Made by a program: the position numbers and the translations under genes. This document shows, piece after piece, positions 2,793-63,895 of a DNA stretch of 64,000 bases (its first letter is position 1; each line of letters starts with the position of its first letter). Where the stretch lies: the NCBI GenBank assembly GCA_021836035.1, contig JAKBJL010000002.1, positions 71,484-135,483 of the forward strand. The letters are read 5' to 3'. Source of the stretch: a bacterium (lineage in GTDB: Bacteria > Patescibacteriota > Microgenomatia > JAMCZE01). Under the pieces are notes generated by a model. It worked only from the letters and a program-made list of their open reading frames with translations, ran no database searches and was not told where the DNA came from.

Positions 2793-2794
2793 AT

Positions 2795-5203: not shown

Positions 5204-5251
5204 TAATTAAGATAAATTATAGCTTAAATATTTTTATATCCAAAATATATA

Positions 5252-5286: not shown

Positions 5287-6210
5287 ATGAAAATTCTTAT
5301 CACCGGAGGCGCCGGATTTCAAGGCAGCCATCTTCTGGAGCACCTACTTCCCGGGAACCACCATATTACGATCTTAAATACCTATTCGGAAATCGCGGCC
5401 AGGAATATTAGTCTTTTATGTAAGGATATTAATTGTGTCTGGGGAAGTATTACTGATCCAGAGATAGTAGAAAAAACGATTAGAGGTCAGGACGTCATCG
5501 TTCATATGGCCGCAAGAATACATGTGGGAGAATCCATAAATAATCCCAGTGCCTTCATTGAGACTAACGTTAAGGGGACCCTTAATATTCTAGAGGCAAT
5601 GAGAAATGCCAATAGTAAAGCGCCAAGTTTAATTTATTGGAGTACCTGCGAAGTTTATGGAGCCCCGTTACAAGGCAAATTATCCGAGTGTTCCGAACTG
5701 AGGCCCCAAAGTCCCTACGCCGCCTCAAAAGCGGCTGCTGATCGCCTTTGCTATGCATACTATAAAACATATGGCTTAAATATTACGATCGTTCGACCAT
5801 TTAATATCTTCGGTGAACGACAAAAAATTGGGGTTGGTGGCGCGGTAATACCTACGTTCGTCGAACAAGCTATGAATAATCAACCGTTAACAATTTCCGG
5901 AAGCGGTAAGCAAACCAGAGATTATTTAAACGTCAAAGATGTCATACGCGCTTTTGATATTATTTTGCAAAACAAAAACTTATCCGGCCAGACCATTAAT
6001 TTTGCTACCGGGATAAACACCTCTATTTTAGAAATAGCAAGATACATTGCTAAAAAGTTTAATACCAAGATAATTCATACTAGTCCCAGACCGGGTGAGG
6101 TAATTGCCTTTCCTGCAGACTGCCATAAAGCAAAATCTTTGGGATTTCGACCCAGTATTCCAATTTGGGAAGGTATTGATAACTATATCAATTGGAGATT
6201 GCAGAAATAA
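5287..6210 (+). CDS. NAD-dependent epimerase/dehydratase (extended SDR; UDP-sugar 4-epimerase / NDP-sugar dehydratase-like)
   Basis: Rossmann motif ILITGGAGFQGSHL is present near the N-terminus. The catalytic Y-x3-K YAASK sits at the expected spacing after the S/T residue (WSTCEVYG). The 307-aa length fits the family. Confidence 0.85.
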   Translation: MKILITGGAGFQGSHLLEHLLPGNHHITILNTYSEIAARNISLLCKDINCVWGSITDPEIVEKTIRGQDVIVHMAARIHVGESINNPSAFIETNVKGTLNILEAMRNANSKAPSLIYWSTCEVYGAPLQGKLSECSELRPQSPYAASKAAADRLCYAYYKTYGLNITIVRPFNIFGERQKIGVGGAVIPTFVEQAMNNQPLTISGSGKQTRDYLNVKDVIRAFDIILQNKNLSGQTINFATGINTSILEIARYIAKKFNTKIIHTSPRPGEVIAFPADCHKAKSLGFRPSIPIWEGIDNYINWRLQK

Positions 6211-7396
6211 TTTTTTTACCTCTTTTTTTCCAGGTATATTCTCCTTTAACATCTATAAAAGCCCGACGTGAAATTTTACGGGCAAAATTCTGGTGCCCCA
6301 TAAGAAATACAATTTTATCTGCCAAATCCCGGGGATCATCGGGTTTGGCAAAAATAGCATTCTCTTTATCGTTCAGCACCTCTCTAACTGATGGTAAATT
6401 CGTGGCCAGAATAGGATTACCGCTAGCCATATATTCAAACATTTTTAAAGGGGCCATAGTATACGCATAGTGTTTGTTCCAGGGGAAAGGCATGGCGCAT
6501 ATATCGAAAGCACGCATATATAAATATAGAGTTTTAGGTGGGACATGGCCCAGGAAAAGAGCTTTGGCTTCCGGAATCTCTTCCTCCTCTAGCATTTTTT
6601 GATAGTTAATAATATTTTCCTGGGGCCCACCAACACAGACCAAGAACAAACCGGGATATTTTGGAATCAATAACCCCATCGCTTTAATCAGTTCGGGGAT
6701 TCCTTTTTCCATGCCCGCAGTTACAAAACGACCACCATAACCTACAATAAATTTATCCGTTGGTAAGGATAGTTTTTTCCTGATCCGTGGTTTGGTCGTT
6801 GTAAAATCAAAATCTTCCATGTTAATTCCGTTGGGTAATGTAATAATTTTTTCATTGGGGAATCCCTGCCGCCGATAATAATCGGCAATATTATGATTGG
6901 AGGTTATTAATAAATCTACTCTGTTTATCCCTAATTTCTCAGTCAAATCTTCATACCTGTTTTGTGGTGGGATATGTACTTCGTAAATTACCATGGGCTC
7001 ATAGAATAAACGCGCTATATTTAAAAGGATCAAGGCCTCCTTGCATTCTGTAAAAAGATGAATAATCCGTCTGTTTTTTGACCAGAGATAATAAAGTAGC
7101 GCTATACTGAATGACCAGCTCATGAAAAGATATCTTAAATGAAGGATAATTAGTTCTAATAGTGGTATGCGGGGAAGTTCCAAAGCAAATAATTTTTTAA
7201 TCGGATAAAAGCCTTTTTTAATTTGGTAGTAATCCCAGAAATTAGCTTTTTTCAGTGCAGACACCTGTTTGCGATCAGGAATAACCAATTCTACTTTCTG
7301 GTTATTATCTACATAGGATTTACACATTGAGGCGATAGCGAACGATACGCCCCGCTCCTCCGGCATTCTTATTTTGGTTATGAAAGATATTAGCAT
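6188..7396 (-). CDS. Glycosyltransferase family 4-like (GT-B)
   Basis: The C-terminal half ...GYGGRFVTAGMEKGIPELIKAM...FDICAMPF...MFEYMASGNPILATNLPSVREVL resembles the GT4 donor-binding domain. Its 3' end overlaps the epimerase convergently by 23 nt. Confidence 0.65.
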   Translation of the reverse strand: MLISFITKIRMPEERGVSFAIASMCKSYVDNNQKVELVIPDRKQVSALKKANFWDYYQIKKGFYPIKKLFALELPRIPLLELIILHLRYLFMSWSFSIALLYYLWSKNRRIIHLFTECKEALILLNIARLFYEPMVIYEVHIPPQNRYEDLTEKLGINRVDLLITSNHNIADYYRRQGFPNEKIITLPNGINMEDFDFTTTKPRIRKKLSLPTDKFIVGYGGRFVTAGMEKGIPELIKAMGLLIPKYPGLFLVCVGGPQENIINYQKMLEEEEIPEAKALFLGHVPPKTLYLYMRAFDICAMPFPWNKHYAYTMAPLKMFEYMASGNPILATNLPSVREVLNDKENAIFAKPDDPRDLADKIVFLMGHQNFARKISRRAFIDVKGEYTWKKRGKKIISAISN

Positions 7397-8190
7397 GATG
7401 CACTTATTAAACTACGTCCGCCTCTTAATGCTATCGCATTAAAATGAAAATTTTTAAAAATATCTCTGAATATTTCCAGTGATTTTCCCGTCAAATCTGG
7501 ATGATACTCACCTATATAATTTCGGGCGACCTTCATATCTTTTATTGTCAGAAACGCCCGATATTCTTCTCCCTCAATATCGAATTTAATTATATCCACA
7601 GTCTTTAATTTTAAATTCTTCAATATATCAGTTATTGTTTTACCCCTAACCCATATCGACCGCTGCCCCGCCTCCCTCTTCAAGAGCGATGACGACAAGT
7701 TATTATCCTGGTTTAGATAAAATTTATTATTACCGGATCTGTCGGTAATAGCCCAATTATATGCTTGAGCATTTGTTAACTGTTTTATATTCAACAATAG
7801 CAACTGATAATTTCCGGGGTTGGGTTCAAAACAAATTATTCTCGACTGGGTGAATTTCAGTTTGAAATAGATTACCGATATTCCGATATGCGAACCAAAA
7901 TCAAGAATAATAGGTTTAGAAGCTTTTATGTCATTACGGTAAATTTCTTTTAAAAACACGTCGTCAATAGCTACCAGGTCTGCATCATCTCTTATATAAA
8001 TAAAAAATTTGGTTCCCTTCCAGCACAGCTGCAACTTAACCGGGCTCGAGGTTAAATAGGGTAGTCTTCCCTTAAATAAGGACAGAAAAGACCTAAGGAT
8101 CAATTTGATTTTTGTGGATCTATCCGCACAAAGAAACAATAGTCTCTTGGTTCTATGTAAATTATCAGTAACGTTTTTCAGCAGTTGCAT
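7390..8190 (-). CDS. FkbM-family SAM-dependent methyltransferase
   Basis: ...IILDFGSHIGISVIYF...SRIICFEPNPGNYQLLLLNI...AITDRSGNNKFYL...VDIIKFDIEGEEYRAF... matches the Methyltransf_21/FkbM pattern (DxGAxxG...AFEP...N......KiDvEG.E). Confidence 0.65.
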   Translation of the reverse strand: MQLLKNVTDNLHRTKRLLFLCADRSTKIKLILRSFLSLFKGRLPYLTSSPVKLQLCWKGTKFFIYIRDDADLVAIDDVFLKEIYRNDIKASKPIILDFGSHIGISVIYFKLKFTQSRIICFEPNPGNYQLLLLNIKQLTNAQAYNWAITDRSGNNKFYLNQDNNLSSSLLKREAGQRSIWVRGKTITDILKNLKLKTVDIIKFDIEGEEYRAFLTIKDMKVARNYIGEYHPDLTGKSLEIFRDIFKNFHFNAIALRGGRSLISASC

Positions 8191-8219
8191 TCGTGTTCAA
8201 GAGATAAGATGAACCCTCA

Positions 8220-8864
8220 TTAAATTTTTTTTCCTACAAAAACGATGTCGTCGGCAAACAGATCCGGAAATGATTTTGCTAAAAAGTGGAATTTATCGAC
8301 TGTTAAAGCGTGTACCTCGACATCTGGAAATATGCTTTTAAAAACATTTCTTATAATACTTATTGAAAAAACGTTAAGATGTGTCGGATCGGAAATTGAA
8401 TTCGGAATTTGTCCTTTTAAAAATCTTACTCTTTCTAAAATATGAAAAGCATTCGGTACTGAACCTACGAATATGCCGCCGGGTTTTAGAATTCTAAATA
8501 CCTTCTTAATTACCTCCTTAGGGAAATAAAGATGTTCCAGAATTTCCCCTGCTACTATCACATCAAAGGAATTAGCAGTAAATGGCCAATTTCTGGAATT
8601 TAAATCAAATTGCCTAGTATTTATATATAGATTTTTTTTACAAATAGCTAGTAGTCTCTTATCAATATCTACTCCTAGGACGGTATTTCCTTTAGTAAAA
8701 TATTTCGTCATAGTACCATCACGACACCCAAGATCCAATACTCTTTTACCTCTGCCTATGATATCGGAAAACAATTTTCCGCGCTCTTTTTCAAAATAAG
8801 CAAAATATTCTCGGTGGTTATTCCGATGATGGTACTGATAAATATCGCTAATTACGGATTTCAT
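8220..8864 (-). CDS. Class I SAM-dependent methyltransferase
   Basis: Motif I VLDLGCRDGTMT, motif post-I VLGVDID and motif II/III FDVIVAGEILEHL...LKPGGIFV are all present. Confidence 0.7.
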   Translation of the reverse strand: MKSVISDIYQYHHRNNHREYFAYFEKERGKLFSDIIGRGKRVLDLGCRDGTMTKYFTKGNTVLGVDIDKRLLAICKKNLYINTRQFDLNSRNWPFTANSFDVIVAGEILEHLYFPKEVIKKVFRILKPGGIFVGSVPNAFHILERVRFLKGQIPNSISDPTHLNVFSISIIRNVFKSIFPDVEVHALTVDKFHFLAKSFPDLFADDIVFVGKKI

Positions 8865-8866
8865 GT

Positions 8867-9931
8867 TTATTGTAGGTTATCTACTATAGCGGCGACCAAT
8901 TTATTTTGTGAATAGCTTTCTTTCAGTTTTTTTTGACCTTCCATAACTAAATTCTTAATTTCATTTCGATTTCTCTCTAAACTTTTAATGGCGTTAAAGA
9001 TTTGTTTGATATTCCCCTGCTTACATACATAACCGCCGATTCTATTATTAACAACTTCTCCGGCGCAGCCGGTATCGGTCATGACCACCGGTAAACCGGC
9101 GGCAAGAGCCTCAATAGCACTTAAACCCCATCCTTCATAATTAGAAGTCAACAGGAAGATATCGGACTTCGCCAGGGTCTGTTTAACTTCCAGGCGGTTT
9201 TTCTGGCCAACCAAGAGAACCTTTCCTTCCAATCCTTTTTCGCTGATCAGTCCTTCCAGCTTTGGCCGTTCTTCTCCCTCGCCTACTACCACAAACTTCA
9301 TCTTTGGGTAAGTTTTGCACACTCGTTCCGCCACCCCTATTAATAATGGTATATTTTTCTGTTTAATTAGCCTGGCTACCGTTACAATTTGGTTAAAGCG
9401 CTTTACATGCGGTTTGGACCAAAAGTAGTCGAGGTCAACCGGCACGGGGGCTACGAAGGACTTGTGGCCGTATCCGAGCCTCTTGCTAACCACCCTAACC
9501 GAATCCGCAGAGAGCAAGGTAAGCCTTCCCAGCCAATAAAAGAGATAATTCTGCAGGCTTTCGCGGCGAAAATAAGGGGTCTTAAAATAATCGTTATGAA
9601 TTTGGATATTTAACTTAACCCCCCAGCGGAATTTAGCCAAAACCCCTACCAAAGCGCAGATAAAAGGATCTTGGGTAGAAATTATATCCAGACGGGGTAA
9701 AGCGGTTAATATTTTCAGAGAATCCCCAAGATAATGCCAGCGGCTTAGCGAGTTGGTGGGAATAATATGTAAATTCTCCGCATCGATTCGGGAAAATCCC
9801 GCCAGCTTTAGGGAAAAAACGATAAGGTACAACTCTTTAAAATAATTCGCGTATTCCCGGTGTCTTGCCAGCACGTCGGCGTTTTTACCGGTAAATAAGC
9901 TGGTATCGGTACTGATAAAAACTATCTTCAT
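8867..9931 (-). CDS. Glycosyltransferase family 4, compositionally chimeric
   Basis: EGWGLSAIEALAAGLPVVMTDTGCAGEVV is the E-x7-E motif. The last ~60 codons (8867..~9050) are K/N-rich and about 30-37% GC, while the rest of the gene is about 45-63% GC. Confidence 0.8.
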   Translation of the reverse strand: MKIVFISTDTSLFTGKNADVLARHREYANYFKELYLIVFSLKLAGFSRIDAENLHIIPTNSLSRWHYLGDSLKILTALPRLDIISTQDPFICALVGVLAKFRWGVKLNIQIHNDYFKTPYFRRESLQNYLFYWLGRLTLLSADSVRVVSKRLGYGHKSFVAPVPVDLDYFWSKPHVKRFNQIVTVARLIKQKNIPLLIGVAERVCKTYPKMKFVVVGEGEERPKLEGLISEKGLEGKVLLVGQKNRLEVKQTLAKSDIFLLTSNYEGWGLSAIEALAAGLPVVMTDTGCAGEVVNNRIGGYVCKQGNIKQIFNAIKSLERNRNEIKNLVMEGQKKLKESYSQNKLVAAIVDNLQ

Positions 9932-11751
9932 ATTATCCTCGCGTCTATTTTACCCTGATTATCATAGAATAAATCTATCTTTCGCAACCGGCTATCACCA
10001 CCGCATACCGTGTAGCGCTCCCGATATTGCCCGGGAAAGTAATATGCCCTTATTTTGTCGGAAATACCCAAATAGCGCCGCAGGGACAATTCCGAAATTC
10101 CCCTTTCGACTTTTAAGCAACTATCGGGGGAATAAATTGATTTAACTTTGCCATTGATATTTTTCCAGTTTTGTTCCTTTAGCCAGGCTTGGGTGGTTGA
10201 TGAATAAGTTATTGCGGCGCCGAAAGAATCCCAAGAAATTGCATCATCGTCCAAACCGTTGGACAGATAATTGAATCGGAAAACAGTATTCAGCGTATAG
10301 ACAAGAGACAGCAACCAAATGGCGGCAAACAAAGTAATAATTATGGCTTTAGATTTAAATAACAGTAATGAATCGACAAAGATAATCAGTAACGGCAGAG
10401 TAATAAAAGGCAGGTAATAAGTCCTGACCCCGTTAAGAAGAAATATTACTGCCGAACTGAGGATAAAAATAATTATCAGCAACATATTACCCCCCTGTTT
10501 GCGCGTTGTGCCCATAAGCAGAAATATAATCAGTAAAGAAAAAAGGATAACTCCGTATTGATCAGCTAAAATCAGCGATAAGCGGGTAAGATTGCCGGAC
10601 AAATTCAGGGAAGCCTGTGTGGCCCCCGGATGCGCCGGAGTCTTGAATATCCGGGAGAAAAAGATATCGGTGTATCCCGTTGCAAGATATGCGCCGATGT
10701 TATAAACAATTACCGGGGAAAAGACAGCCAGAGCCGGGACAAACACCCGCAGGCCGTTTTTAATCAGCTCGCGCCTCTTAACAAGAACCAACCCCGCGCT
10801 AATAACGGGAAGTATCACCAGAGCGCTTTCTTTAACCAGCATCGCTCCTCCGAAAAATATCCCGGTTAAAAGTAAATATCTGTTTTCCTTGCCGTTGAAA
10901 AAGCGGAGAAAAACATAGATCGTTATTGTTAAAAGAAAGGTTAAAAACATTTCCCGGTGAAAGATGCGGCTCATAAAAATATGGTAATTATTAACCGCCA
11001 GTAAAGCCGTAACCGCAAAGGCTATAGATTTTTTCTTAAGAATCTCTTCCGACAGAAGATAAGCGAGGGGCAGTAACATTATACCGACTAACGCCGGGCC
11101 AAAGCGAAACATCCAGTCGGATAAGGTAGAAAGCCCCCCGGGCGAAAGAATCTGCATCGTAAAGTGCTGGATATATAAAGCCAGCGGCGGATGGCCGGAA
11201 AAAGAGAGAACCAAAGCTTTGCGACCGGCAAATATTCCGTCCACCAGGTTATCAGCCTGGTAACCGAGGTCATACTCATCACCGTTCAAATCGGGGATAT
11301 TTAACGGCAAAAATATCAGCAACGCGGCGATAAATAATGGCGGAATCAGTAATTTCAGATCCGTCAAGGATACTTTCTCTATTTGATCTTTTTTTCCATA
11401 AAGATACAGGGCCACCAGCGTTGTCAGTATATACATAACCAGCAGTATGAATATGTCGCCGGTCAGATGGTAACCGAAGATAGCTTGCGCTGATCTTCCT
11501 TCATAGAGAACGTTTAAAAACCCCGCGGGATAAGTCAAAAGCAAACTTAACCCGAACGAGATCAGTATTCTTTCCATAAGATCCCGGGACTTCGGGAGCA
11601 AAATCAGACTAAGAGGGTAACCACTGAAGAAAAAAACGAAAAGGAAACCGCTCACCCATCTTAAATACACCAGCCGGCTGTCAAACGACAGCAGAAGCGA
11701 TAGCAGCCCGGAGACTAAACCTGCCAGGAGCAGCTTATTTCTTTTCATCAC
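9928..11751 (-). CDS. Polytopic membrane protein, putative GT-C fold glycosyltransferase (ArnT/PMT-like) with C-terminal extracytoplasmic domain
   Basis: The protein is 607 aa with more than 10 hydrophobic helices in the first ~450 aa. An acidic loop NGDEYDLGYQADN follows the first helices, and a soluble C-terminal domain of about 150 aa follows the membrane part. Confidence 0.45.
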   Translation of the reverse strand: MMKRNKLLLAGLVSGLLSLLLSFDSRLVYLRWVSGFLFVFFFSGYPLSLILLPKSRDLMERILISFGLSLLLTYPAGFLNVLYEGRSAQAIFGYHLTGDIFILLVMYILTTLVALYLYGKKDQIEKVSLTDLKLLIPPLFIAALLIFLPLNIPDLNGDEYDLGYQADNLVDGIFAGRKALVLSFSGHPPLALYIQHFTMQILSPGGLSTLSDWMFRFGPALVGIMLLPLAYLLSEEILKKKSIAFAVTALLAVNNYHIFMSRIFHREMFLTFLLTITIYVFLRFFNGKENRYLLLTGIFFGGAMLVKESALVILPVISAGLVLVKRRELIKNGLRVFVPALAVFSPVIVYNIGAYLATGYTDIFFSRIFKTPAHPGATQASLNLSGNLTRLSLILADQYGVILFSLLIIFLLMGTTRKQGGNMLLIIIFILSSAVIFLLNGVRTYYLPFITLPLLIIFVDSLLLFKSKAIIITLFAAIWLLSLVYTLNTVFRFNYLSNGLDDDAISWDSFGAAITYSSTTQAWLKEQNWKNINGKVKSIYSPDSCLKVERGISELSLRRYLGISDKIRAYYFPGQYRERYTVCGGDSRLRKIDLFYDNQGKIDARII

Positions 11752-12910: not shown

Positions 12911-12913
12911 TAA

Positions 12914-15398: not shown

Positions 15399-15425
15399 AA
15401 GCAGCTCAAAGCCAATAGCAAATAG

Positions 15426-16571: not shown

Positions 16572-16921
16572 TTTGGCTTGTTTGCTTTGTTGCCGTTTTC
16601 GAGGGCAATTTTCCGAACTAGCTCCGTAATCTGGTGAGAAAGGTTTTCCATGAGAACATAAGCCCGGAAAATTAAATAGAAAAGGACAATAATGGAAACA
16701 TAAATAACCAGATCCGCTCCCCGCCCGATACCGAAAAGCCGCGCCAACCGCGTTGTTTCTCCCGGAAAAAGAACACCGAAGATAGCCGAGACAAAAACTA
16801 CCGACCAGAAAATAAACTCCTTATATTTAATTTGCCCGCCCCGGAAGCGCAGAAATACCCGGCTTAAGGCAAACAAAAGAAAAAGCAGCAGAATGAGCTG
16901 AATTATGATGATACTGCTCAT
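16568..16921 (-). CDS. Small 3-4 TM membrane protein, DUF2304-like
   Basis: The protein is 117 aa with hydrophobic segments MSSIIIIQLILLLFLLFAL, IFWSVVFVSAIFGVLF and LVIYVSIIVLFYLIF. Its size, topology and position in an operon with a Dpm1-type GT2 match what I recall of the DUF2304 family. Confidence 0.4.
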   Translation of the reverse strand: MSSIIIIQLILLLFLLFALSRVFLRFRGGQIKYKEFIFWSVVFVSAIFGVLFPGETTRLARLFGIGRGADLVIYVSIIVLFYLIFRAYVLMENLSHQITELVRKIALENGNKANKPK

Positions 16922-17679: not shown

Positions 17680-17680
17680 A

Positions 17681-26725: not shown

Positions 26726-26726
26726 C

Positions 26727-37695: not shown

Positions 37696-37709
37696 AAGAT
37701 TTCCGCTGC

Positions 37710-56833: not shown

Positions 56834-58638
56834 TTATCCGTTACTAAGGAAACCAGATCGGTATTCGCCGGTACTTCCGCTTCGATCAGGCGGAAAGCGG
56901 GAGTATTATCAGGATAAGAGATAGTTTGCCAGACTTTCATCCGCGGCCTGACTTCCGCAGGTTTATAACTCCTTTGAAGATCCCCTTTAATAAAACCGGG
57001 CGGCAAATCTTCATCCCAGTCGATAAGCAGCAGGCGCTTAGACGGTGCCTCAAGAAAACGCGAGGCGTCATAAATTTTACCCCAGGCAATCGATCCGGGA
57101 AAATAATAATTCGCAAAACTGCGGACATGAACAAAACCCTCGCTGGTTGCCGGATACCTTACGGCCTCTTGCCAGTAAAGTGCGGGCGGAAAACTCTGAT
57201 AAAAAAGGAAAAAAATGTAAGGCGAACGGTCGGGATGAGGTACCACGACCATATCAAATTCCTTTTGCCGGCTGATTGCCGATTTCACCGCTTCTCTTAA
57301 GCCATAATTCCAGGCTCCGGCGCGCTGGGCCGCTTCCAGGGGTCCGTAATTCCAAATCTCGGGAGATGTTTGGGGGAAGTGCACAAAATAAGCATCCACA
57401 AAAAGCAAATTGCCGTATATATAGGCGCCGCCCAGAAACGCCAGGCCGGCCAAGGACAGAACCCGGGACAAATTTCTTAATATCCGGTAAATAAACAACA
57501 ATCCGTAGGCGGAAATGAGGGGAATTACTCCCGCGGCGAAAATCGACCGGCTGAAATGGGGCGCATCCCGGGTTATGGTTGCCGGCAACGGAGCTAACAG
57601 CAACCACGAAAGTAAAATCCATTTATTAGACAGCCGGCTATTTAACAAACCTAAGATCCCGGCAAGAAGCAAAAAGTAATCGAGGTAATTTAAGTTGCCC
57701 CGATCGGGAAGATTATGTTGAATGTTAGTACCGCCGCCTTCTACTAAAAATTGGGGCGAGAAAAAGTTGAGATAATTATTGGCGGATTGCTGCAGCATAT
57801 AAACCAGTCGGTTGTGAAGCAGGGGAACCAGCGGCTCCAATATTCCGTGCGGTTGACTACGCGGTAAATCAATAATTTTATTTAATTGAGCCCGGTCGCT
57901 TAATAAGCCGATTCCGGAAATTTTCACCACATCCGCCCCGGTTAAAGTGGTCAGTAAACTTAAGGCCCACAAAACGATAAAAACTAGCCCGGTTGTTAGG
58001 CTTAACCAACCCCGCGGCAGATTTTTCCTTTGCAGAAAGAGAAAAATAACCAGGAATGCCGGAATGAAAACATGGCTGGCATGATAGGAAAAAAGGGTAG
58101 CGGCCATTAGTAAAGCCGATAAAACCAGTAAAACACGGTGCCTGTCAGAATCATAAAAAGAAAGCACAGCGCCTAAAAATAAAGCCAAAGCAAAGTTTGC
58201 TTCATAAGCCGCCCTGCTGAAAAAAACGCTCCAGGGCAAAAAAGCGAAAAGGGCTGCCGAAATCAGCGCCAAAATATCCCGGTATTTATCCTCCGGATAG
58301 ATTTTGCGGGCCAGGAAAAAAAGCAGAATAACGCTAAGTACCCCGGAGGTGGCGGATACAAAGCGAACGGCAAACTCCGTTAAAGAAAACAGCTTTACCG
58401 CCGGAATAGTAGCAAAAACGTAAAGCGGCAATTTCCAGTCGCCGAAAGATTCGAGCGACAACGGAAAAAACCGCCCGTACTCATCCCGGCCGGTGGTTAA
58501 GAGGGAATAGGCCGTGTAGCCGATTGAGGCCTCGTCGCGGTTTAATCCTACCGGAACGGTCCCCAGCTCGTAAAAACGCAATAATATAGCCATCAGCAGG
58601 ACTAACCCCAGGGAAAAACCCAGCAATTTTTTGCTCAT
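56830..58638 (-). CDS. GT-C glycosyltransferase, PMT_2/ArnT family, paralog A5
   Basis: ...LRFYELGTVPVGLNRDEASIGYTAYSLLTTGRDEYGRFFPLSLESFGDWKLPLYVFA... carries the family motif. The protein is 602 aa with a C-terminal soluble domain. Confidence 0.7.
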   Translation of the reverse strand: MSKKLLGFSLGLVLLMAILLRFYELGTVPVGLNRDEASIGYTAYSLLTTGRDEYGRFFPLSLESFGDWKLPLYVFATIPAVKLFSLTEFAVRFVSATSGVLSVILLFFLARKIYPEDKYRDILALISAALFAFLPWSVFFSRAAYEANFALALFLGAVLSFYDSDRHRVLLVLSALLMAATLFSYHASHVFIPAFLVIFLFLQRKNLPRGWLSLTTGLVFIVLWALSLLTTLTGADVVKISGIGLLSDRAQLNKIIDLPRSQPHGILEPLVPLLHNRLVYMLQQSANNYLNFFSPQFLVEGGGTNIQHNLPDRGNLNYLDYFLLLAGILGLLNSRLSNKWILLSWLLLAPLPATITRDAPHFSRSIFAAGVIPLISAYGLLFIYRILRNLSRVLSLAGLAFLGGAYIYGNLLFVDAYFVHFPQTSPEIWNYGPLEAAQRAGAWNYGLREAVKSAISRQKEFDMVVVPHPDRSPYIFFLFYQSFPPALYWQEAVRYPATSEGFVHVRSFANYYFPGSIAWGKIYDASRFLEAPSKRLLLIDWDEDLPPGFIKGDLQRSYKPAEVRPRMKVWQTISYPDNTPAFRLIEAEVPANTDLVSLVTDK

Positions 58639-60212
58639 TAAATTCCCTCCAGTTTTACTACGGAAATATTTCCCGGAAAATCTTTCTGCTCAAGAATCTT
58701 CCCCATTCTCTGTAGCCCTTTTTGCCACTCTGCCCTCGCTGCCGGCCTGTCCCTGTCCGGCTCTAAGATTAAATAGTATAACCCTCCGATCTTTCGGGGA
58801 ATTTTAACCTGCTCTCCGATTCCTAACGGCGGTACCGCCACATTTAAATTCTGCGGCGCATAGCCGTAAGTTTTCCGGCCGTACCAATAAAAATCATATT
58901 GCCAGATATAATCATAGACCGGCGGGGTATAGGCAAAAAAAGCAAATTTATTTCCTCCTGCCGAATGGTACACGTAATCTACCACCCGGATTTGGTTGCG
59001 GAGAGTCCCGGTATCCCCCGGACCGGGATTGGTTAGGCCGGCTAAACCTTCGCCGCTGACCAGGCTGGCCGAGAGCCCCCAAATGCTCAGGCCCAGTATT
59101 AAATAACGGGTCAGATTGGCGCTCTGCCAAAGCACGGCAAAGGGGATAACGATTAAAAGGGCATAAACTACCGGTAATCCGGCACGGTACCAAGCCCAAA
59201 GCGGTCCCGGATATAAGCTGAAACCAAGGTAAAATACCGCCAGAACCGTAAGGAGAATTTTTAAAACATTTAAACAGGGTACTAATTTTTGGCGATAAGC
59301 GGTAATCCAACCCCAGAGGGCCAGCAAGGTCACCGGCAAAATAAAATACCAGGCAGATAGCGGCATGGCCATTTGGATAAAATCGGCGGCCATGGTTTTA
59401 GCGCGTTCCCAGAACCGAAGATAGAGAGGCAGGGCTGAGCCGTAAAGGCTGCGGTTCTCGCCGGTCAGAAAATGCAGCAAACTGTTAGCCATTAAAAAGC
59501 GGTGCCGGATATCGAAAATCACCTGGGGTAAAAATGTCAGCAACAGGATACCTAAACCCAGGAAAAAATAGCGGGACTTTAAAGTATTTGTTTTTTTAAA
59601 AATTAACAGCAGCGCCAATATCACCGGAAGAGTAAAAACGGCAAAGCCGATCTCCAACTGGAAAAAGACACCAACCAATAACCACCAAAGCAGCCAAAAA
59701 ACATCCCGCCGGTTAACCATAATTTCGTAGGCGCACCAGATAAAGAAAAAGAACAGATAGGCTAGCGGCAGAGGACTTAAAACCACCTGAGAACCGCCGA
59801 TAAAATGCGGGCTCAGCAGCAGAAAAATATAAGTGGCGACAGCTTCCTTTTCTCCCCATATCCGACGCACGATAAAGTAAGCCGCAACTGTTGCCGCCAG
59901 ACTAAAAATTACCAGATAGAGCATATTAGCTGCGGGATTACCGCCGCTTAAAAGGAACGGCACGGCTAAAAACCAGGTCCAGAGCGGTCCCATCAGCACC
60001 CCTTCCAAACCGCTGTATCGGCTGATCAGGTTGAGCTTATGATCTACAACCAGCTGCTTGACCATGATCATATCCAGGCCCTGATCAAAACCGAAAAAAA
60101 CGCCGTTGTGGATGAGCGGAATAATCCGCAGGAATGCTGCCAGCAGAAAAACAACTATTAAAACAAGTGGTTTAATCTTTGAACGCATAGCAGTCATACA
60201 AATCATTAGCAT
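58638..60212 (-). CDS. Polytopic membrane protein, FGFDQ-motif family (putative GT-C), paralog F1
   Basis: The protein is 524 aa. ...LRIIPLIHNGVFFGFDQGLDMIMVKQLVVDHKLNLISRYSGLEGVLMGPLWTW... is shared with 61061..62581 and 62594..63895. Confidence 0.4.
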   Translation of the reverse strand: MLMICMTAMRSKIKPLVLIVVFLLAAFLRIIPLIHNGVFFGFDQGLDMIMVKQLVVDHKLNLISRYSGLEGVLMGPLWTWFLAVPFLLSGGNPAANMLYLVIFSLAATVAAYFIVRRIWGEKEAVATYIFLLLSPHFIGGSQVVLSPLPLAYLFFFFIWCAYEIMVNRRDVFWLLWWLLVGVFFQLEIGFAVFTLPVILALLLIFKKTNTLKSRYFFLGLGILLLTFLPQVIFDIRHRFLMANSLLHFLTGENRSLYGSALPLYLRFWERAKTMAADFIQMAMPLSAWYFILPVTLLALWGWITAYRQKLVPCLNVLKILLTVLAVFYLGFSLYPGPLWAWYRAGLPVVYALLIVIPFAVLWQSANLTRYLILGLSIWGLSASLVSGEGLAGLTNPGPGDTGTLRNQIRVVDYVYHSAGGNKFAFFAYTPPVYDYIWQYDFYWYGRKTYGYAPQNLNVAVPPLGIGEQVKIPRKIGGLYYLILEPDRDRPAARAEWQKGLQRMGKILEQKDFPGNISVVKLEGI

Positions 60213-61083
60213 AATAAGGAACTATTAAACGCGGCAAACCAAAAGTTTTTATCGCACCTTGCGCTACCGCGGCTAATTTTTTGTTGATCGCCTTTAGGCG
60301 GGAGGCCAGATAACCCAGGGAAAGGCGGCGCCAATGCGGGCGGAAGATTACTTTGGAAAAACCGATGCGCTGAAGATAACTATCCGCTGTCCGGCGGCTT
60401 AAAAAGACCCGGTGCATTTCCATATACCAGGGCCATTTACTGCCCATAAATCTCGCCAGGGGGCTCTCCGGATCAACAGTTGAAAAGGCCAATACTCCCC
60501 CGGATTTTAAATACCGGCAAACTTTTTTTAACTCGGCTACGGGGTCGGCAAAGTGTTCGATTACGTCCCACATGGTAATAACATCAAAACTGTTTTCAGG
60601 AAATACGCCCGAGGCGAAAGGTTTATTAATTAAATCAATTTGGTAGTTCTTCAGGGCAAACTCTACCGCCCAACGGTTGGGCTCCAGTCCCCGGGCGTTC
60701 CAACCGCGATCGCGGGCAATTTTGACAAAAAGCCCGGTATTGGTGCCCACGTCCAACAGCTTTCCCCGCTCCGGGTAAATTTTTTCCAGCTTAGAGAGAT
60801 AAATTTCAAAAGTCTTGCGGCGGGCTTCTTGTTCCGCAAAATAAAGGGGATCCTGGGAAACTTCATAATAGGTACTGATCCGTTCCTGGGATAGGTTTTC
60901 ATTGCTGTAGATCATTCCGCAAAGGTCGCATTTTACAATCGGTCCGTGCATCCCGAAGCCGCAGTTGGTACAGGAAAATTCCCCGGCCTTCAGGGAACCG
61001 GTATTATTAGTCGGAGGATAAATCAGCTTTACCGCCCCTTGGCCGCAAAAACGGCAATGATCAGTTTTTTTCCGTACATCCAT
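60172..61083 (-). CDS. SAM-dependent methyltransferase with N-terminal Cys4 zinc-ribbon
   Basis: N-terminal C-x2-C...C-x2-C (CRFCGQG...CTNCGFG) and a further C-x2-C (CDLCG). Motif I LLDVGTNTGLF. ...FDVITMWDVIEHF...LKSGGVLAFS. The architecture resembles the zinc-binding domain plus Methyltransf_23 of NDP-sugar/polysaccharide methyltransferases. Confidence 0.6.
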   Translation of the reverse strand: MDVRKKTDHCRFCGQGAVKLIYPPTNNTGSLKAGEFSCTNCGFGMHGPIVKCDLCGMIYSNENLSQERISTYYEVSQDPLYFAEQEARRKTFEIYLSKLEKIYPERGKLLDVGTNTGLFVKIARDRGWNARGLEPNRWAVEFALKNYQIDLINKPFASGVFPENSFDVITMWDVIEHFADPVAELKKVCRYLKSGGVLAFSTVDPESPLARFMGSKWPWYMEMHRVFLSRRTADSYLQRIGFSKVIFRPHWRRLSLGYLASRLKAINKKLAAVAQGAIKTFGLPRLIVPYYANDLYDCYAFKD

Positions 61084-62581
61084 AGGCGACTCTCTTCTGA
61101 ACGGTAAATTGCCCGAATCTCTTTTCGGAAATTAAATTGGATTCCCGGTTTTCGCCGTCATAAAACTCACTGACAAACCATCCGGCGATACCTCTTTGCG
61201 GCTCCGCAATAACATACCGCCGGCAAGTCCCCTCCGCCCCCTCGGGTAAACTGCCCGGAAACTGTGGATTATTGCCCCAGGAAAAAGCAGGAAAGTAGCC
61301 GTAGGATTTTCCGTATTGCCGGTAAAGATAAGCCCAGGTGGTTTGAATCTTGAGCGGCATGGAAAGAGTTTTAATCTGGAATTTTTCTCCCGCGGCTTCA
61401 CGGTAAGTATAATCCACAACCGCCCGTTCATCCCGCAGCATCATGCCGTTTTGAACCGCCAATAATCCCCAGACCAGCCCGTTTCTTCCCTGGCTAAGCA
61501 ATAATTTAATATTACCAAGGAGTATGAGGATAATCAGCAAAGTTAAAACCGCTTTATTCCTTATTAGCTTCAACATTAAAAATACCGTAAGGAGGGTAAG
61601 GGGTATGGCAACGCCGATATTGGTCATAAAATAACCCAGGGTGGCAATATTGGCAAAATACAGAACCAGCGGACCGGCAACCCAGACCAGTAAAAAAAGC
61701 ATTTCCCGGCGGTAGCGTTGCTCTTTTAAAGCAAGATAAAGGAGAAGGAAAAAAACCAATGCCGAGAAAAATAAGCTGAAACCAAATAAATTAAGATAAA
61801 TATGCTGGAAATATTTCTCGAGAATGACGGTTAGATGATCGCTTACCCGGTAAAGTTCCTGCCCGGAGGAAGCAAAAAACTTTAACAAGGATACGGTCAT
61901 TCTGAGCGGATACTTAATTTCAGCTAGAAGATAATTTCCGATTGTCCCCCCAAAAACCAGGAGGGAAATAAGCAGCCACTTCCGGTTAATTTCAACAGTC
62001 TTGTGATATAAAAATAAATTGACCGGGGGAATAATCGCCAGGTATATTAAAAAAAATTCGAAATGGATAGCCGTCCCCAGGCCCGCGGCTAACAGCACCA
62101 GGCCCCAGGGTTTGTTTTTTAAAAAGAAAAGCAGGCAGCCGAGGTAAAATATCAAAACGGATATCATTGCGGGTGAAGGATTGGCCGCGTAATAGGAATA
62201 CTGGTATTGCTCAAAGGAAAAAGCATAAAAAAGGGCCGCCAGGAGTCCCGCCTTTTTCCCGAACAAAAGGCTTCCGATAAGATAGACCAGAAATACCCCG
62301 CCGGCATTTAAGACCATAAGCGCGGCAAACGGCAATTGCGGATCGCCGCGGGACAAAGCGTAAAAAGGGCCGATTAAATAATAGTAAAGCGGCCCCTGGA
62401 AGACACCGCTAATATCCGTGGGCGGACCGAGAAGCTTAATACTGCGATCCCCTATCCATTGCCGGGAAACATAAGCATCCCTCGCCTGATCAAAGCCGAA
62501 ATAAATATTGCCCGGGAAGTAGACAAAACGATAGAGCAGAGCGCCAGCAAAAACCGCTAGCAGGATAAGCCAATACTTCAC
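61061..62581 (-). CDS. Polytopic membrane protein, FGFDQ-motif family (putative GT-C), paralog F2
   Basis: ...LYRFVYFPGNIYFGFDQARDAYVSRQWIGDRSIKLLGPPTDISGVFQGPLYYYLIGPFY.... Confidence 0.4.
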   Translation of the reverse strand: MKYWLILLAVFAGALLYRFVYFPGNIYFGFDQARDAYVSRQWIGDRSIKLLGPPTDISGVFQGPLYYYLIGPFYALSRGDPQLPFAALMVLNAGGVFLVYLIGSLLFGKKAGLLAALFYAFSFEQYQYSYYAANPSPAMISVLIFYLGCLLFFLKNKPWGLVLLAAGLGTAIHFEFFLIYLAIIPPVNLFLYHKTVEINRKWLLISLLVFGGTIGNYLLAEIKYPLRMTVSLLKFFASSGQELYRVSDHLTVILEKYFQHIYLNLFGFSLFFSALVFFLLLYLALKEQRYRREMLFLLVWVAGPLVLYFANIATLGYFMTNIGVAIPLTLLTVFLMLKLIRNKAVLTLLIILILLGNIKLLLSQGRNGLVWGLLAVQNGMMLRDERAVVDYTYREAAGEKFQIKTLSMPLKIQTTWAYLYRQYGKSYGYFPAFSWGNNPQFPGSLPEGAEGTCRRYVIAEPQRGIAGWFVSEFYDGENRESNLISEKRFGQFTVQKRVAYGCTEKN

Positions 62582-62593
62582 TAGGCTATTCTA

Positions 62594-63895
62594 TCAGAAA
62601 TTTTTAACTACCTTAATATCCCCGAAAGTTGCCCCGCTTTCAGAGCTTAAATCCCCGGGGAGAAAGAGGGTGTAACGGGAATTAACAGCGCCGGATTGAG
62701 CCTGAGGATCGCGTAGCCAAAACAGGTAGGGAAAACCGTTATTTAATCCCGGTGCCGCCATAACCCCGTAAGTCACCTGGGGGCACTGACAGTTTGCCAA
62801 AACATAATTTACCGCCCGCTCTTTAGAAAGGAGGCTATAGGGATTTGCCGCGACCATAAAACTCCTGAGATTAAGATAAAAAAACACCGCGGCTGCGATT
62901 GGCAATAACGCCCGTCCGACCCCGCTTCCGGCCAGACGACGGGCGAGGGTAGCGTAAATTAAAATAATCGCGGGAAAAGTTAACAAAAAATAATATTCCG
63001 GAACGGGACCGGGATAAAAAGAGAACACTAAAAGCGGGACGGCGATCCAGATTAAATATTCCCGGATGTGCTGCCGGGCCAACCATATTACCGCCGCTAT
63101 CATAATTATCCCCTGCCAGGCACCCGGTAAGCCGAAAATGGCCAAAAAATTCTGGATATTAATCCTGGCCAGGAGCAGCATTTTAAAAATAAACGGATAA
63201 GCTGCGCCCGGCTGCGCGCCCGCCGTAAAAATCTCCCCAAATCTCTGAACCTCCCCGAATCCGTGCCTCAGTTCAAAAAGAAGCGAAGGCAGGATAAGGA
63301 GGATAAAACCGGCTAACCCCAGATAAACCGAGCTACGGGAGGCTTTGAATTTATGGCCCAAGCCCTCCGCAAGAGATACCGGCAACATTAACATTCCGGT
63401 AGGATGAAAATTCCAGCTGACGCCTGATAATAAGAAACTCACGGGGATATTCTGCCGGAATTCCCAGGCTAATAACGCCAGGAAAATCAAGGGATTGGAA
63501 GGCGCGCTACCCCGGTCTACTAAAATAATCCGGAAGGAAAAAATATAGATAAAGAGGGCCCATATCCCGCCGAGCCGATAGATCAAAACCATGCTCCCGA
63601 GAGCGAAAAACATCTGCAAGACATTTCCCGCTAACGGGTTCATTCCCCCCAGAAAATAAAAAACGCTTAACAGGTAATAATACCCCGGGCCGGTAAATAT
63701 CCCGCCGAGGGAAATTTGCTGCCCGATGAGGGAAATTTTATGATCCACTAAAAAACTTTTTATCCACCAAGCGGCAGCTTCCTGGTCAAAATCAAAGCCG
63801 GCAAAGCGCTCAATTTGATAAAAGCGAATAGCTAAACCCAAAGCCATAAATCCGGCCGCCAAAAAAAACTTCAGAAAACGCTTATTTTTAATCAC
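62594..63895 (-). CDS. Polytopic membrane protein, FGFDQ-motif family (putative GT-C), paralog F3; GTG start or 5' end outside window
   Basis: ...IRFYQIERFAGFDFDQEAAAWWIKSFLVDHKISLIGQQISLGGIFTGPGYYYLLSVFY.... The codon at 63893-63895 is GTG. The frame stays open to the window edge (no in-frame stop in 63896-64000), so the true N-terminus is uncertain. Confidence 0.4.
   Translation of the reverse strand: MIKNKRFLKFFLAAGFMALGLAIRFYQIERFAGFDFDQEAAAWWIKSFLVDHKISLIGQQISLGGIFTGPGYYYLLSVFYFLGGMNPLAGNVLQMFFALGSMVLIYRLGGIWALFIYIFSFRIILVDRGSAPSNPLIFLALLAWEFRQNIPVSFLLSGVSWNFHPTGMLMLPVSLAEGLGHKFKASRSSVYLGLAGFILLILPSLLFELRHGFGEVQRFGEIFTAGAQPGAAYPFIFKMLLLARINIQNFLAIFGLPGAWQGIIMIAAVIWLARQHIREYLIWIAVPLLVFSFYPGPVPEYYFLLTFPAIILIYATLARRLAGSGVGRALLPIAAAVFFYLNLRSFMVAANPYSLLSKERAVNYVLANCQCPQVTYGVMAAPGLNNGFPYLFWLRDPQAQSGAVNSRYTLFLPGDLSSESGATFGDIKVVKNF

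Follow-up and report, generated by a model that had tools for sequence, protein, structure and literature searches.

A 52-gene envelope-glycosylation supercluster in a Microgenomates genome, probably expressed from promoters embedded in coding sequence

Main

How can a run of dozens of genes be expressed when almost no DNA separates one gene from the next, and what would such a run make? We address both questions at a locus from a bacterium of the Microgenomatia (Patescibacteriota; lineage JAMCZE01), in a stretch of 64,000 nucleotides (positions 71,484–135,483 of contig JAKBJL010000002.1, assembly GCA_021836035.1; hereafter 'the window') in which 45 consecutive minus-strand open reading frames (ORFs), g01 to g45, fill positions 6188–63895. 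Bacteria of the candidate phyla radiation (CPR) are thought to live attached to host cells, and their surface chemistry is almost uncharacterized. The array is almost wholly made up of glycosyltransferases, about half of them of the GT-C fold, and it continues beyond the window to a total of 52 genes. On balance we consider it probable that this is an envelope-glycosylation supercluster expressed from −10 promoters embedded in coding sequence, with a mosaic end at g01–g03.

A run of 52 co-directional glycosylation genes

The array was delimited within the window from a listing of maximal ORFs of at least 100 aa together with junction arithmetic. Neighbouring genes overlap by 4 nt at sixteen junctions and by 1 nt at three; elsewhere overlaps span 7–85 nt, and the gaps measure 29, 27, 14, 12, 3, 2 and 0 nt, 29 nt being the maximum. 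The co-directionality and near-absence of intergenic DNA reported in a first-pass annotation of the window are therefore borne out, as are its count of at least 15 overlaps of 4 nt, its three 1-nt overlaps and six of its seven gaps; the recount gives 45 genes where it had 44, and a gap of 0 nt where it had 1. That annotation had also envisaged that corrected gene starts might open substantial intergenic regions. The long overlaps of 77, 85 and 47 nt are indeed mostly an artefact of choosing the first possible start (revised starts give a g39 of 781 aa and a g32 of 567 aa, and with the next ATG taken for g19 its junction becomes a gap of +1), and correction by public calls or the next ATG opens a gap of about 44 nt at the widest.

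Sequence beyond the window was read from contig DAHXMT010000003.1 (235,983 bp; GCA_027371575.1), in which the window corresponds to positions 62741–126740; the locus also assembles from the reads of run SRR13170411. There the array runs for another 8 kb, through seven further co-directional genes, up to the divergent trmD. The nearest of these genes starts at extended position 65313 on the minus strand and overlaps g45 by 4 nt, and the widest gaps within the extension are 69 and 33 nt. The whole run amounts to 52 genes in 65.9 kb (extended coordinates 6188–72067), and its first gene is separated from trmD by a gap of 47 nt (extended 72068–72114; positions 468–514 of L002, our record of the sequence around this gap). 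ARAGORN detected no tRNA genes.

Pfam, NCBIfam and fold comparison assign every gene to glycosylation, 45 of 45 in the window and 52 of 52 overall, so the functional uniformity remarked on at first pass holds as well. The window encodes 23 multi-spanning proteins of GT-C type, eight glycosyltransferases of family 2 (GT2) and seven of family 4 (GT4), four methyltransferases, one Wzx flippase, one DUF2304 protein and one small membrane protein. With the four GT-C-type and three GT2 genes of the extension, the 52-gene run holds about 27 GT-C-fold and 11 GT2 proteins, the other classes being as in the window (Table 1).

Promoter-like elements at the 3′ ends of upstream genes

The element TGcTATACT lies in the 47-nt gap next to trmD, 15 nt ahead of the ATG of the first array gene. 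From it we took the class of motif used as a probe throughout: an extended −10 of the form TGnTAnnnT with at least five of six matches to TATAAT. The same gap appears to hold back-to-back promoters, with TTGAGT-17-TAAAAT on the opposite strand, 9 nt from the ATG of trmD. Nine matches to the probe occur on the coding strand of the array; four of the nine fall within 100 nt upstream of a start (background, 8%), and a fifth lies 12 nt from an alternative ATG of g18.

For comparison, 78 related CPR loci (L003–L080) were annotated with the window proteins. Where junction gaps in these loci do not exceed 30 nt, 114 of 371 within-gene matches are found no more than 100 nt from the next start, against a uniform expectation of 7.7%, whereas 19 permuted hexamers give 5–12% at the same junctions; the ordered TATAAT is enriched about fourfold. 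The distance from −10 to start in the relatives peaks at 0–30 nt and, at single-nucleotide resolution, at 6–7 nt (34 of 1,131 genes under strict extended −10 criteria). Such a spacing equals the canonical distance between a −10 element and the transcription start and implies that mRNAs in these genomes would frequently be leaderless.

Synonymous-codon resampling separates this signal from what the encoded peptides dictate. At tight junctions across the lineage, 84 motifs fall in the final 102 nt of the upstream ORF where 32.2 ± 5.1 are expected, and mid-gene segments contain 5 where 18.2 ± 3.7 are expected, a depletion of about 3.6-fold. Judged by codon choice, −10-type motifs are selected for at ORF 3′ ends and selected against within ORFs in this lineage.

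The best-supported embedded candidate is a perfect extended −10 near the 3′ end of the Wzx gene g35, ahead of the GT2 gene g34 (Table 1). Of 42 distinct relatives, 25 have the motif at this Wzx-to-GT2 junction, 66–90 nt (mode 78) ahead of the GT2 start; resampling with locus-specific codon usage predicts 5.5 ± 2.0 and reached a maximum of 13 in 2,000 trials. It overlaps a conserved G-A-I-I/L-Y peptide and does so in two different codon registers. In two relatives the motif of the g31 candidate recurs ahead of the orthologue, at distances of 63 nt and about 66 nt, and the junction orthologous to g19/g18 in a groundwater relative (L083) carries TGATAAAAT 6 nt ahead of the start. Each of the four best candidates (for the first array gene, g34, g31 and g18) stands ahead of a gene for a GT2 enzyme, a pattern suggestive of modules in which GT2 is followed by GT-C.

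The TGnTAnnnT elements might instead be something other than promoters: AU-rich standby or S1-binding sites for the ribosome, RNase processing sites, or the by-product of peptide motifs. Another initiation signal would indeed be needed, Shine–Dalgarno motifs being absent (see below), and several of the elements coincide with peptides that recur (GAIIY in Wzx; A-K/R-M in g32, g19 and g08); two permuted AT-rich hexamers are also slightly enriched (11–12% versus 7.7%). Yet the fourfold enrichment belongs to the ordered hexamer and not to its 19 permutations, the Wzx motif occurs in two codon registers and far above the level that amino acids and codon usage predict, and the spacing to start codons is sharp at 6–7 nt. 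At about 78 nt from the next start, moreover, the Wzx motif is too distant for ribosome binding. We regard a non-promoter origin of the elements as very unlikely.

The first-pass annotation had held that no stretch of the array could hold a promoter. This part of it does not stand, −10 elements being found in the last ~100 nt of upstream ORFs or 6–7 nt before starts; between the alternatives that it left side by side, one polycistron or promoters embedded in coding sequence, the comparative evidence favours the second.

Several points weigh against embedded promoters. A generic sigma-70 scan of 1–60 kb, of the kind that had been proposed for the coding sequences, returned promoter-like matches at shuffle expectation, with no excess, and is uninformative alone. 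Taken by itself, this array shows a weak enrichment (three motifs in ORF 3′ ends versus 0.94 expected), so the claim draws its support from the lineage as a whole and from the conservation of position. Related sequences being non-independent, the resampling statistics overstate significance to some degree, and gene starts in the 78 loci come from a crude maximal-ORF caller. The candidate ahead of g44 would mean a leaderless GTG start, which is unusual. Promoter function is inferred throughout from motif position and synonymous-site constraint only.

A collinear cluster conserved across Microgenomates

The relatives of the YfhO-family proteins belong to Levy-, Roizman-, Gottesman-, Woese-, Shapiro- and Chisholmbacteria, all of them Microgenomates within the CPR (Patescibacteria). 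Among the GTDB representatives searched, the best hit reached 54% identity, and the source species is not one of them. Across the related loci, 82% of 881 co-directional junctions measure 30 nt or less and 22% exactly −4, the median being −4. Tight packing is typical of the lineage, and it is the length of the run that is exceptional: if junctions were independent, such a run would be expected with a probability of 0.82^44, or about 1.6e-4.

Dozens of loci share one core gene order, GT2(GtrB-like)–MptA/B-like–PMT_2–YfhO–PTPS–PTPS–GT2–Wzx–GT2–GT2–GT2–YfhO–GT4–YfhO–GT2–GT2, which the window matches over g40 to g27. On the 116-kb contig of the groundwater relative L083, whose GC content is 38% as against ~47% for the array here, 18 genes are orthologous to and collinear with window genes at 30–81% identity. 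When that contig was tiled, at least 33 collinear co-directional genes were found over at least 37.5 kb, from g40 through g04 and on to a g03-like methyltransferase. The sole gap longer than 41 nt in this run measures 259 nt; it lies ahead of Wzx and has its own −10. Relative to the collinear cluster, the window owes its extra length to added genes (g28, g26, g16, g13 and g11) and to more YfhO and family D copies. On gene order and homology, the array is best described as an expanded version of a collinear cluster that is conserved across Microgenomates.

The comparison with syntenic loci that the first-pass annotation had called for thus found a co-directional counterpart, and it qualifies the remark, made there, that such arrays are rare. 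To our knowledge, arrays this long and this uniform are rare among bacteria in general, but within Microgenomates the collinear cluster is conserved. Strict co-directionality is not obligatory, since in two close relatives (L004 and L017) a single gene, the g32 homologue, is inverted.

Initiation, termination and the single-transcript alternative

Shine–Dalgarno-like motifs precede 12.7% of starts in the relatives, against 10% at a control position, and 8 of 57 starts in the array, against 6 of 57. With the motifs at background level, initiation is not driven by Shine–Dalgarno pairing, and a model of translational coupling driven by such pairing was dropped for want of enrichment. Features expected of leaderless or short-leader mRNAs are present: spacings of 6 nt at g44 and 12 nt at g18, the 6–7-nt peak of the relatives, and the lack of Shine–Dalgarno motifs.

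As the first-pass annotation had stated, no convincing intrinsic terminator stands at any gene end (scan of 1–60 kb); the matches are scattered inside genes. Terminator-like hairpins on the minus strand do exceed dinucleotide shuffles (67 versus 40.7 ± 6.3 in 20–40 kb and 54 versus 38.2 ± 7.4 in 40–60 kb), an excess probably owed to coding sequence for transmembrane segments, which is rich in T.

Long operons are elsewhere sustained by antitermination, as in the O-antigen and capsule operons with RfaH and ops/JUMPstart, the UpxY-dependent operons of Bacteroides, the eps operon of Bacillus subtilis with its EAR element, and the LoaP-dependent pks operons. Like them, the array is very long and co-directional, with little intergenic DNA and no internal terminators. 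Unlike them, it has no NusG paralogue (no Pfam match to one, or to KOW, in any array gene), no room for a leader beyond 47 nt in all, and no Rfam match, EAR included, in the window or L002; internal −10 elements, moreover, appear to restart transcription in the array. An ops-like octamer, GGCGGTAG, occurs six times where 1.7 are expected, and 2 of 100 shuffles reach six. A role in ops/JUMPstart control was judged not meaningful, the octamers being intragenic without exception and no RfaH-like gene being found; they probably reflect chance or codon bias.

These observations bear on the simplest alternative, that the array is one polycistron of ~66 kb transcribed from a single promoter beside trmD, with downstream genes translationally coupled and internal motifs non-functional or negligible. 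The layout itself invites this reading (52 co-directional genes, 16 overlaps of ATGA type, gaps of at most 69 nt), and so do the want of terminator-like structures at gene ends, the plausible extended −10 ahead of the first gene, the generic scan that does not rise above shuffles, and the tight co-directional layout kept in relatives. We nevertheless hold it unlikely. Extended −10 elements are kept at synonymous sites of ORF 3′ ends and purged from gene bodies, and three of the window sites are conserved at orthologous positions. Because relatives tolerate inverted genes and a 259-nt gap that has its own −10, downstream blocks must be transcribable on their own; nor was a NusG paralogue or an antitermination device of ops or EAR type found that might carry polymerase across the whole run.

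Embedded promoters would serve the array as follows. Transcription would start at the trmD-proximal promoter and at no fewer than three to five internal ones, ahead of g44, g34, g31 and g18 and possibly of g23, g14 and g03. The predicted transcripts are long, nested and overlapping, because no intrinsic terminators lie between genes. Translation of promoter-proximal genes would use mRNAs with no leader or a very short one, and that of downstream genes termination–reinitiation at ATGA-type overlaps, two modes suggested by the lack of Shine–Dalgarno motifs, the 6–7-nt spacing and the 16 overlaps of this type. At g44, the TGA stop of g45 supplies the 'TG' and the first bases of TGATAGAAT, and one 9-mer may be both stop codon and promoter element.

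GT-C families within and beyond domain libraries

Four paralogous groups and three single PMT_2 members (g05, g07 and g21) account for many of the GT-C genes. Family A comprises g19, g23, g25, g26 and g41 (30–37% identity), the YfhO family g29, g38, g39 and g40 (31–50%), the PTPS_related family g16, g36 and g37, and family D g42, g44 and g45; profile–profile comparison links the GT-C families of the array to one another. For sixteen proteins of the window, a Pfam match to PMT_2, PMT, YfhO or PTPS_related passes the gathering score. Three more (g13, g19 and g26) match PMT_2 below the cut-off, g19 and g26 being placed by family A paralogy. Most GT-C candidates have acidic motifs (DE, WDE, DD, HD or FDQ) directly after the first hydrophobic segment, and their alignments (A1–A4) contain invariant Asp residues; these motifs may lie in the first extracytoplasmic loop, where GT-C enzymes of multi-component systems have a DxD or modified acidic motif (PMC8035078).

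For the unannotated membrane proteins, neither NCBIfam nor relaxed Pfam searches gave a useful match, nor did PDB sequence-profile searches with the g20 and g22 families. Because profile searches were uninformative, we turned to fold comparison. The g20 family (at least 296 CPR homologues, annotated 'hypothetical protein') and the g32 family (at least 34 homologues, CPR-wide) are without a Pfam or NCBIfam model. The AF2 model of g20 (pLDDT 86, pTM 0.89) retrieved GT-C proteins as all of its top 22 PDB matches in Foldseek (among them AglB, ArnT, ALG12, PimE and PglB), and that of g32 (pLDDT 89.9) did so for all of its top 30, so that both families are confidently predicted to adopt the GT-C fold. 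The best structural matches of g32 are STT3/PglB (E 1e-8 to 5e-7, TM ~0.5), followed by DPY19, AftA and ArnT, and the TM-scores to AftA and DPY19 are comparable to those for STT3/PglB; the model includes a C-terminal extracytoplasmic domain. Assignment of g32 as an oligosaccharyltransferase of PglB type (STT3/PglB/AglB) was rejected for lack of a WWDxG-like motif.

PMT_2 is present in some homologues of g17, distant homologues resemble TMTC proteins, and the match of g17 to EpsG in relaxed Pfam is non-significant (E 0.51). With NCBIfam, g22 scores 34.9 bits for MptB (cut-off 40) and 47.2 bits for MptA (cut-off 439), and the domain PF26314 (MptA_B_family) is found in its L083 orthologue and in one upstream gene of the array. 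The small protein g24 resembles the middle part of family A enzymes. A decaying family A fragment was considered and rejected, an orthologue of 134 aa with 49% identity being kept at the same position in L083 (5249–5653), between family A and PMT_2 genes; on this conservation, g24 is best read as a real small protein and not as a pseudogene fragment.

A mosaic downstream end

Per-gene GC content at third codon positions (GC3) lies between 0.46 and 0.58 from g04 to the first array gene (trmD, 0.52) and between 0.26 and 0.37 in g01–g03 and the flank downstream of them (window 1–6210). These three genes are compositionally foreign and belong to a low-GC Wzm/Wzt island, which occupies window positions 1–8866 and at least 10 kb further downstream (L081, 1–10000) at 34–40% GC and a GC3 of 0.26–0.44, in a genome of ~47% GC; the 10 kb of L081 beyond the window have 41% GC overall. 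The island codes for Wzm and for a Wzt that has a Wzt_C domain, as well as for an epimerase, methyltransferases of FkbM type and glycosyltransferases of both the GT4 and GT2 families; L081 adds a radical-SAM/SPASM enzyme and CapK-like genes. From this content it looks like a horizontally acquired, ABC-transporter-dependent glycan module. Because g01–g03 share the composition of the island, the array is not one evolutionary unit but mosaic at its 3′ end, and the sigma-70-like site at the compositional boundary (8883–8912) is a candidate separate promoter for the low-GC genes g03–g01. We also considered the converse, that the array is an island of 45–50% GC in a genome of 38% GC, and rejected it: the upstream extension and trmD are also at ~47% GC, so the flank is the odd part.

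A sharp step in GC3 between g03 and g04, in a source that is a metagenome-assembled genome, might also mark an artefact or an accidental mosaic, either a chimeric contig or unrelated islands that happen to share an orientation. This is extremely improbable. Array proteins are present on seven contigs, and the low-GC/array junction is common to NCBI, Logan and ENA assemblies, on which grounds chimeric assembly was rejected. Composition is even from g04 to trmD, and the order from g40 to g04, followed by a g03-like methyltransferase, is collinear with that of a relative of very different GC content; the mosaicism is therefore confined to g01–g03.

The convergent epimerase gene that bounds the array downstream overlaps g01 by 23 nt (6188–6210). 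This 3′ overlap holds no terminator-like structure on either strand, and transcripts of each gene would be antisense into the other.

A model for the assembly of an envelope glycan

From the families present, a pathway can be proposed in which cytoplasmic GT4 and GT2 enzymes would make lipid-linked intermediates and GtrB-like GT2 proteins (g33, the GT2+GtrA fusion of the upstream extension, and g12 together with g10) would load sugars onto polyprenyl phosphate. The fusion protein, of GtrA_DPMS_TM type, has sub-threshold matches to PpgS and ArnC. The orthologue of g12 directly adjoins that of g10 in L083, and g10 may be a small membrane protein that partners the soluble GT2 g12, in an arrangement like that of GacI and GacJ. 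The Wzx protein g35 and the GtrA domain would carry intermediates across the membrane, where the ~27 GT-C enzymes, of at least five paralogous families, would each add one linkage as an extracytoplasmic acceptor is extended and decorated. This acceptor may be a surface protein or a glycopolymer of the wall or membrane. Such a number of GT-C genes suggests that a whole glycan is being built, rather than an existing one decorated.

Some points count against this pathway too. No match to Bac_transf, Glycos_transf_4, Wzy_C or Wzz was found with Pfam among the 45 window and seven upstream proteins; an initiating phosphoglycosyltransferase, a Wzy polymerase and a ligase were not found in the array, and no acceptor-backbone genes were recognized there. 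The resemblance of g22 to MptA and MptB would be at the level of the family only, the curated equivalog cut-offs being missed. The likeness of g10 to GacJ presumes a link between GacJ and DUF2304.

A possible but doubtful alternative is that the GT-C set mainly glycosylates surface proteins such as pili, S-layers or adhesins, the array being a collection of semi-independent GT2 and GT-C decoration modules. Relatives of PMT, PMT_2 and TMTC-like type O-mannosylate proteins, g32 finds its best structural matches in the STT3/PglB oligosaccharyltransferases, and the array is without an initiating phosphoglycosyltransferase, polymerase or ligase; the placing of the four best promoter candidates, each ahead of a GT2 gene, also has a modular look. 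Against this, g32 lacks WWDxG, its similarity in fold (TM ~0.5 to many GT-C proteins) does not discriminate between acceptors, and seven GT4 enzymes and a Wzx flippase suggest a lipid-linked oligosaccharide. Characterized YfhO, PMT_2 and MptA/B-like enzymes, moreover, act on teichoic acids, wall polysaccharides and lipoglycans (PMC8035078 for those outside mycobacteria).

Multi-component (three-component) transmembrane glycosylation systems of Gram-positive bacteria (CsbB/GtcA/YfhO, GtrABC-type and GacI-J-K-L) combine a GT2, a flippase and a GT-C in two to four genes and attach a single-sugar decoration to a defined polymer, namely LTA, WTA or SCWP (Rismondo, Gillis and Grundling 2021, PMC8035078). 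The array resembles them in its predicted GT2 of polyprenyl-phosphate-sugar-synthase architecture with a GtrA domain (g33, GT2+GtrA), in the pairing of a soluble GT2 with a small protein of three transmembrane (TM) segments (g12 and g10), in having a flippase (the Wzx-type g35 and the GtrA domain), and in its YfhO- and PMT_2-family GT-C enzymes, with GT2 and GT-C genes adjacent as in csbB–yfhO. It differs in scale, with ~27 GT-C and 11 GT2 genes in 66 kb and at least two GT-C families that lack a Pfam model, and backbone genes for teichoic acid or rhamnan were not seen in it.

Closer in number of steps are the mycobacterial pathways for lipomannan and lipoarabinomannan (LM/LAM) and for arabinogalactan, with PimA and PimB (GT4), Ppm1 (GT2) and the GT-C enzymes PimE, MptA/B/C, EmbA/B/C and AftA–D. 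On its families, the array would follow the same logic, cytoplasmic GT4 steps leading to flipping and then to many GT-C steps that use polyprenyl-phosphate sugars; g22 and an upstream gene are MptA/B-like, and the models of g20 and g32 match PimE and AftA, respectively, among others. The mycobacterial genes, unlike those of the array, are scattered over several loci and both strands. The array matches fall below equivalog cut-offs, no genes for decaprenylphosphoryl-arabinose (DPA) synthesis, galactan or mycolate are present, and the host is a CPR bacterium with a genome of ~1 Mb. Elements of the Wzx/Wzy and Wzm/Wzt pathways are present as well, Wzx (g35) in the array and Wzm, Wzt (with Wzt_C) and methyltransferases in the adjacent island. 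Of the Wzx/Wzy pathway, however, only Wzx was found in the array, which has no Wzy, chain-length regulator, initiating phosphoglycosyltransferase or ligase, and Wzm/Wzt lie outside it, past the convergent epimerase gene and in a compositionally distinct segment.

Glycan clusters of large size are known already, as are promoters internal to operons and systems of GT2, flippase and GT-C. What is new is the scale, ~27 GT-C genes in a 52-gene run where complete genomes of relatives measure 0.76–1.0 Mb, together with the conservation across Microgenomates, two unannotated GT-C families, and comparative evidence for ORF-embedded promoters of leaderless type in CPR bacteria. Within the collection of papers searched, we found no description of any of these points, nor of promoter or leaderless architecture in the CPR.

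A conserved cluster of 40–66 kb points to a complex, uncharacterized envelope glycan in CPR bacteria, and it offers concrete gene targets, including the GT-C families of g20 and g32 type that domain libraries miss. The array is also a clean test case for how transcription is organized in genomes with almost no intergenic DNA, with specific predictions: transcription starts inside coding sequence, and leaderless translation free of Shine–Dalgarno motifs. Operon callers that use intergenic distance would return one 52-gene operon, which is probably wrong. More tentatively, and with clearly less confidence than we place in the supercluster itself, Microgenomates may devote 5–9% of their ~1-Mb genomes to an assembly line of ~27 GT-C enzymes for a very large extracytoplasmic glycan, under a regime of leaderless, embedded promoters. 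If so, the product would be a lipoglycan on the scale of LAM or arabinogalactan or a heavily glycosylated surface layer, probably central to episymbiotic surface biology, and the pathway would be the largest GT-C pathway known outside Mycobacteriales. Its promoters would lie in synonymous sites of upstream ORFs, with no use of Shine–Dalgarno motifs or intrinsic terminators.

Coordinates of genes and candidate signals

Table 1. Genes of the array and its borders, with candidate promoter and ops-like elements, in window coordinates
Feature	Position	Strand	Description	Basis
Epimerase	5287–6210	+	NAD-dependent epimerase/dehydratase, convergent boundary gene; no terminator-like site between it and g01	Pfam
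Array in window	6188–63895	-	g01–g45	ORF listing
g01	6188–7396	-	GT4	Pfam
g02	7390–8190	-	FkbM methyltransferase	Pfam
g03	8220–8864	-	Class-I methyltransferase	Pfam
g04	8867–9931	-	GT4; first gene of native composition, GC3 0.47	Pfam, GC3
g05	9928–11751	-	GT-C (PMT_2/PMT), 12 predicted TM segments	Pfam
g06	11735–12910	-	GT4	Pfam
g07	12914–14281	-	GT-C (PMT_2)	Pfam
g08	14259–15398	-	GT4	Pfam
g09	15426–16571	-	GT4	Pfam
g10	16568–16921	-	DUF2304 protein, 117 aa, 3 TM	Pfam
g11	16918–17727	-	SAM methyltransferase; absent from collinear relative L083	Pfam
g12	17681–18370	-	Soluble GT2	Pfam
g13	18358–19473	-	8 TM, probable GT-C; weak PMT_2 match (E 4.5e-4), below cut-off; not in L083	
g14	19439–20500	-	GT4	Pfam
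g15	20497–21240	-	GT2	Pfam
g16	21237–22919	-	GT-C, PTPS_related; paralogue of g36, g37	Pfam, paralogy
g17	22916–24370	-	8 TM, GT-C-like; no Pfam match of its own	Homologues
g18	24367–25140	-	GT2; likely start ATG 25119	Pfam
g19	25124–26803	-	GT-C family A; likely start ATG 26725	Paralogy with g23, g25, g26, g41
g20	26727–27965	-	Unannotated CPR family, predicted GT-C fold	AF2/Foldseek
g21	27955–29481	-	GT-C (PMT_2); conserved partner of g22 in most relatives	Pfam, synteny
g22	29465–30832	-	MptA/MptB-like GT-C	NCBIfam below cut-off; PF26314 in L083 orthologue
g23	30833–32470	-	GT-C family A (PMT_2)	Pfam, paralogy
g24	32467–32913	-	Small membrane protein, 148 aa	Profile comparison, synteny
g25	32888–34390	-	GT-C family A	Paralogy
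g26	34387–36045	-	GT-C family A	Paralogy
g27	36045–36746	-	GT2	Pfam
g28	36730–37695	-	GT2	Pfam
g29	37710–39953	-	YfhO-family GT-C	Pfam
g30	39950–41011	-	GT4	Pfam
g31	41008–41811	-	GT2	Pfam
g32	41811–43535	-	No Pfam or NCBIfam match; predicted GT-C fold	AF2/Foldseek
g33	43459–44388	-	GT2 (E 4e-32) with 2 C-terminal TM helices; GtrB/CsbB-like polyprenyl-P-sugar synthase architecture	
g34	44385–45281	-	GT2	Pfam
g35	45278–46729	-	Wzx-type flippase	Polysacc_synt_3, E 6.6e-42
g36	46704–48443	-	PTPS_related GT-C	Pfam, paralogy
g37	48440–49984	-	PTPS_related GT-C	Pfam, paralogy
g38, g39, g40	49981–56833	-	Tandem YfhO-family GT-C paralogues, 37–50% identity	Pfam, paralogy
g41	56830–58638	-	GT-C family A	Paralogy
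g42	58638–60212	-	GT-C family D	Paralogy
g43	60172–61083	-	Methyltransferase	Pfam
g44	61061–62581	-	GT-C family D	Paralogy
g45	62594–63895	-	GT-C family D	Paralogy, profile comparison
Next array gene	63892–64000	-	PMT_2 GT-C, 473 aa; 3′ end only in window	Pfam
Six genes beyond it	Past window	-	495-aa GT-C-like, MptA_B-family, GT2, PMT_2, GT2+GtrA fusion, GT2	Pfam
Candidate promoter TGCTATAAT	45360–45368	-	Perfect extended −10 in g35 (Wzx) 3′ end, 79 nt upstream of g34 ATG 45281	Best supported
Candidate promoter TGCTAAAAT	41881–41889	-	In g32 3′ end, 70 nt upstream of g31 ATG 41811	Motif, recurrence in relatives
Candidate promoter TGCTAGAAT	25131–25139	-	Last codons of g19, 12 nt upstream of g18 ATG 25119	Motif, L083 junction
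Candidate promoter TGATAGAAT	62588–62596	-	6 nt before g44 GTG 62581, leaderless-type spacing	Position only
Sigma-70-like TTGGCA-18-TAAAAT	32486–32515	-	In g24, 15 nt before g23 ATG	Position only
Sigma-70-like TTGACA-16-TACTAT	20606–20633	-	In g15, ~105 nt before g14 ATG	Position only
Sigma-70-like TTCACA-18-TATAGT	8883–8912	-	g04 3′ end, 18 nt before g03 ATG, at GC-composition boundary	
Weak candidate TGCTAAAAT	14392–14400	-	In g08, 111 nt before g07; coincides with common GT4 C-terminal peptide LAAKME, may be chance	
ops-like GGCGGTAG	11986, 36999, 37284, 60663	-	In coding sequence	
ops-like GGCGGTAG	38820, 61708	+	In coding sequence	

Two smaller observations concern individual records. Many contigs of Microgenomates type among the related loci (L003, L005–L011 and others, from binchicken and SRP co-assembly metagenome-assembled genomes) are titled 'uncultured Gammaproteobacteria bacterium', which looks like a placeholder or a wrong label. 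Within the tandem of YfhO-family paralogues, g40 (54602–56833) lacks the N-terminal ~35 aa with TM1 and the 'LPFPGD' segment present in g38, g39 and g29, and the C-terminus of the neighbouring g41 is ~14 aa longer than in its paralogues; the g40/g41 border may represent an N-terminal truncation or a rearranged junction.

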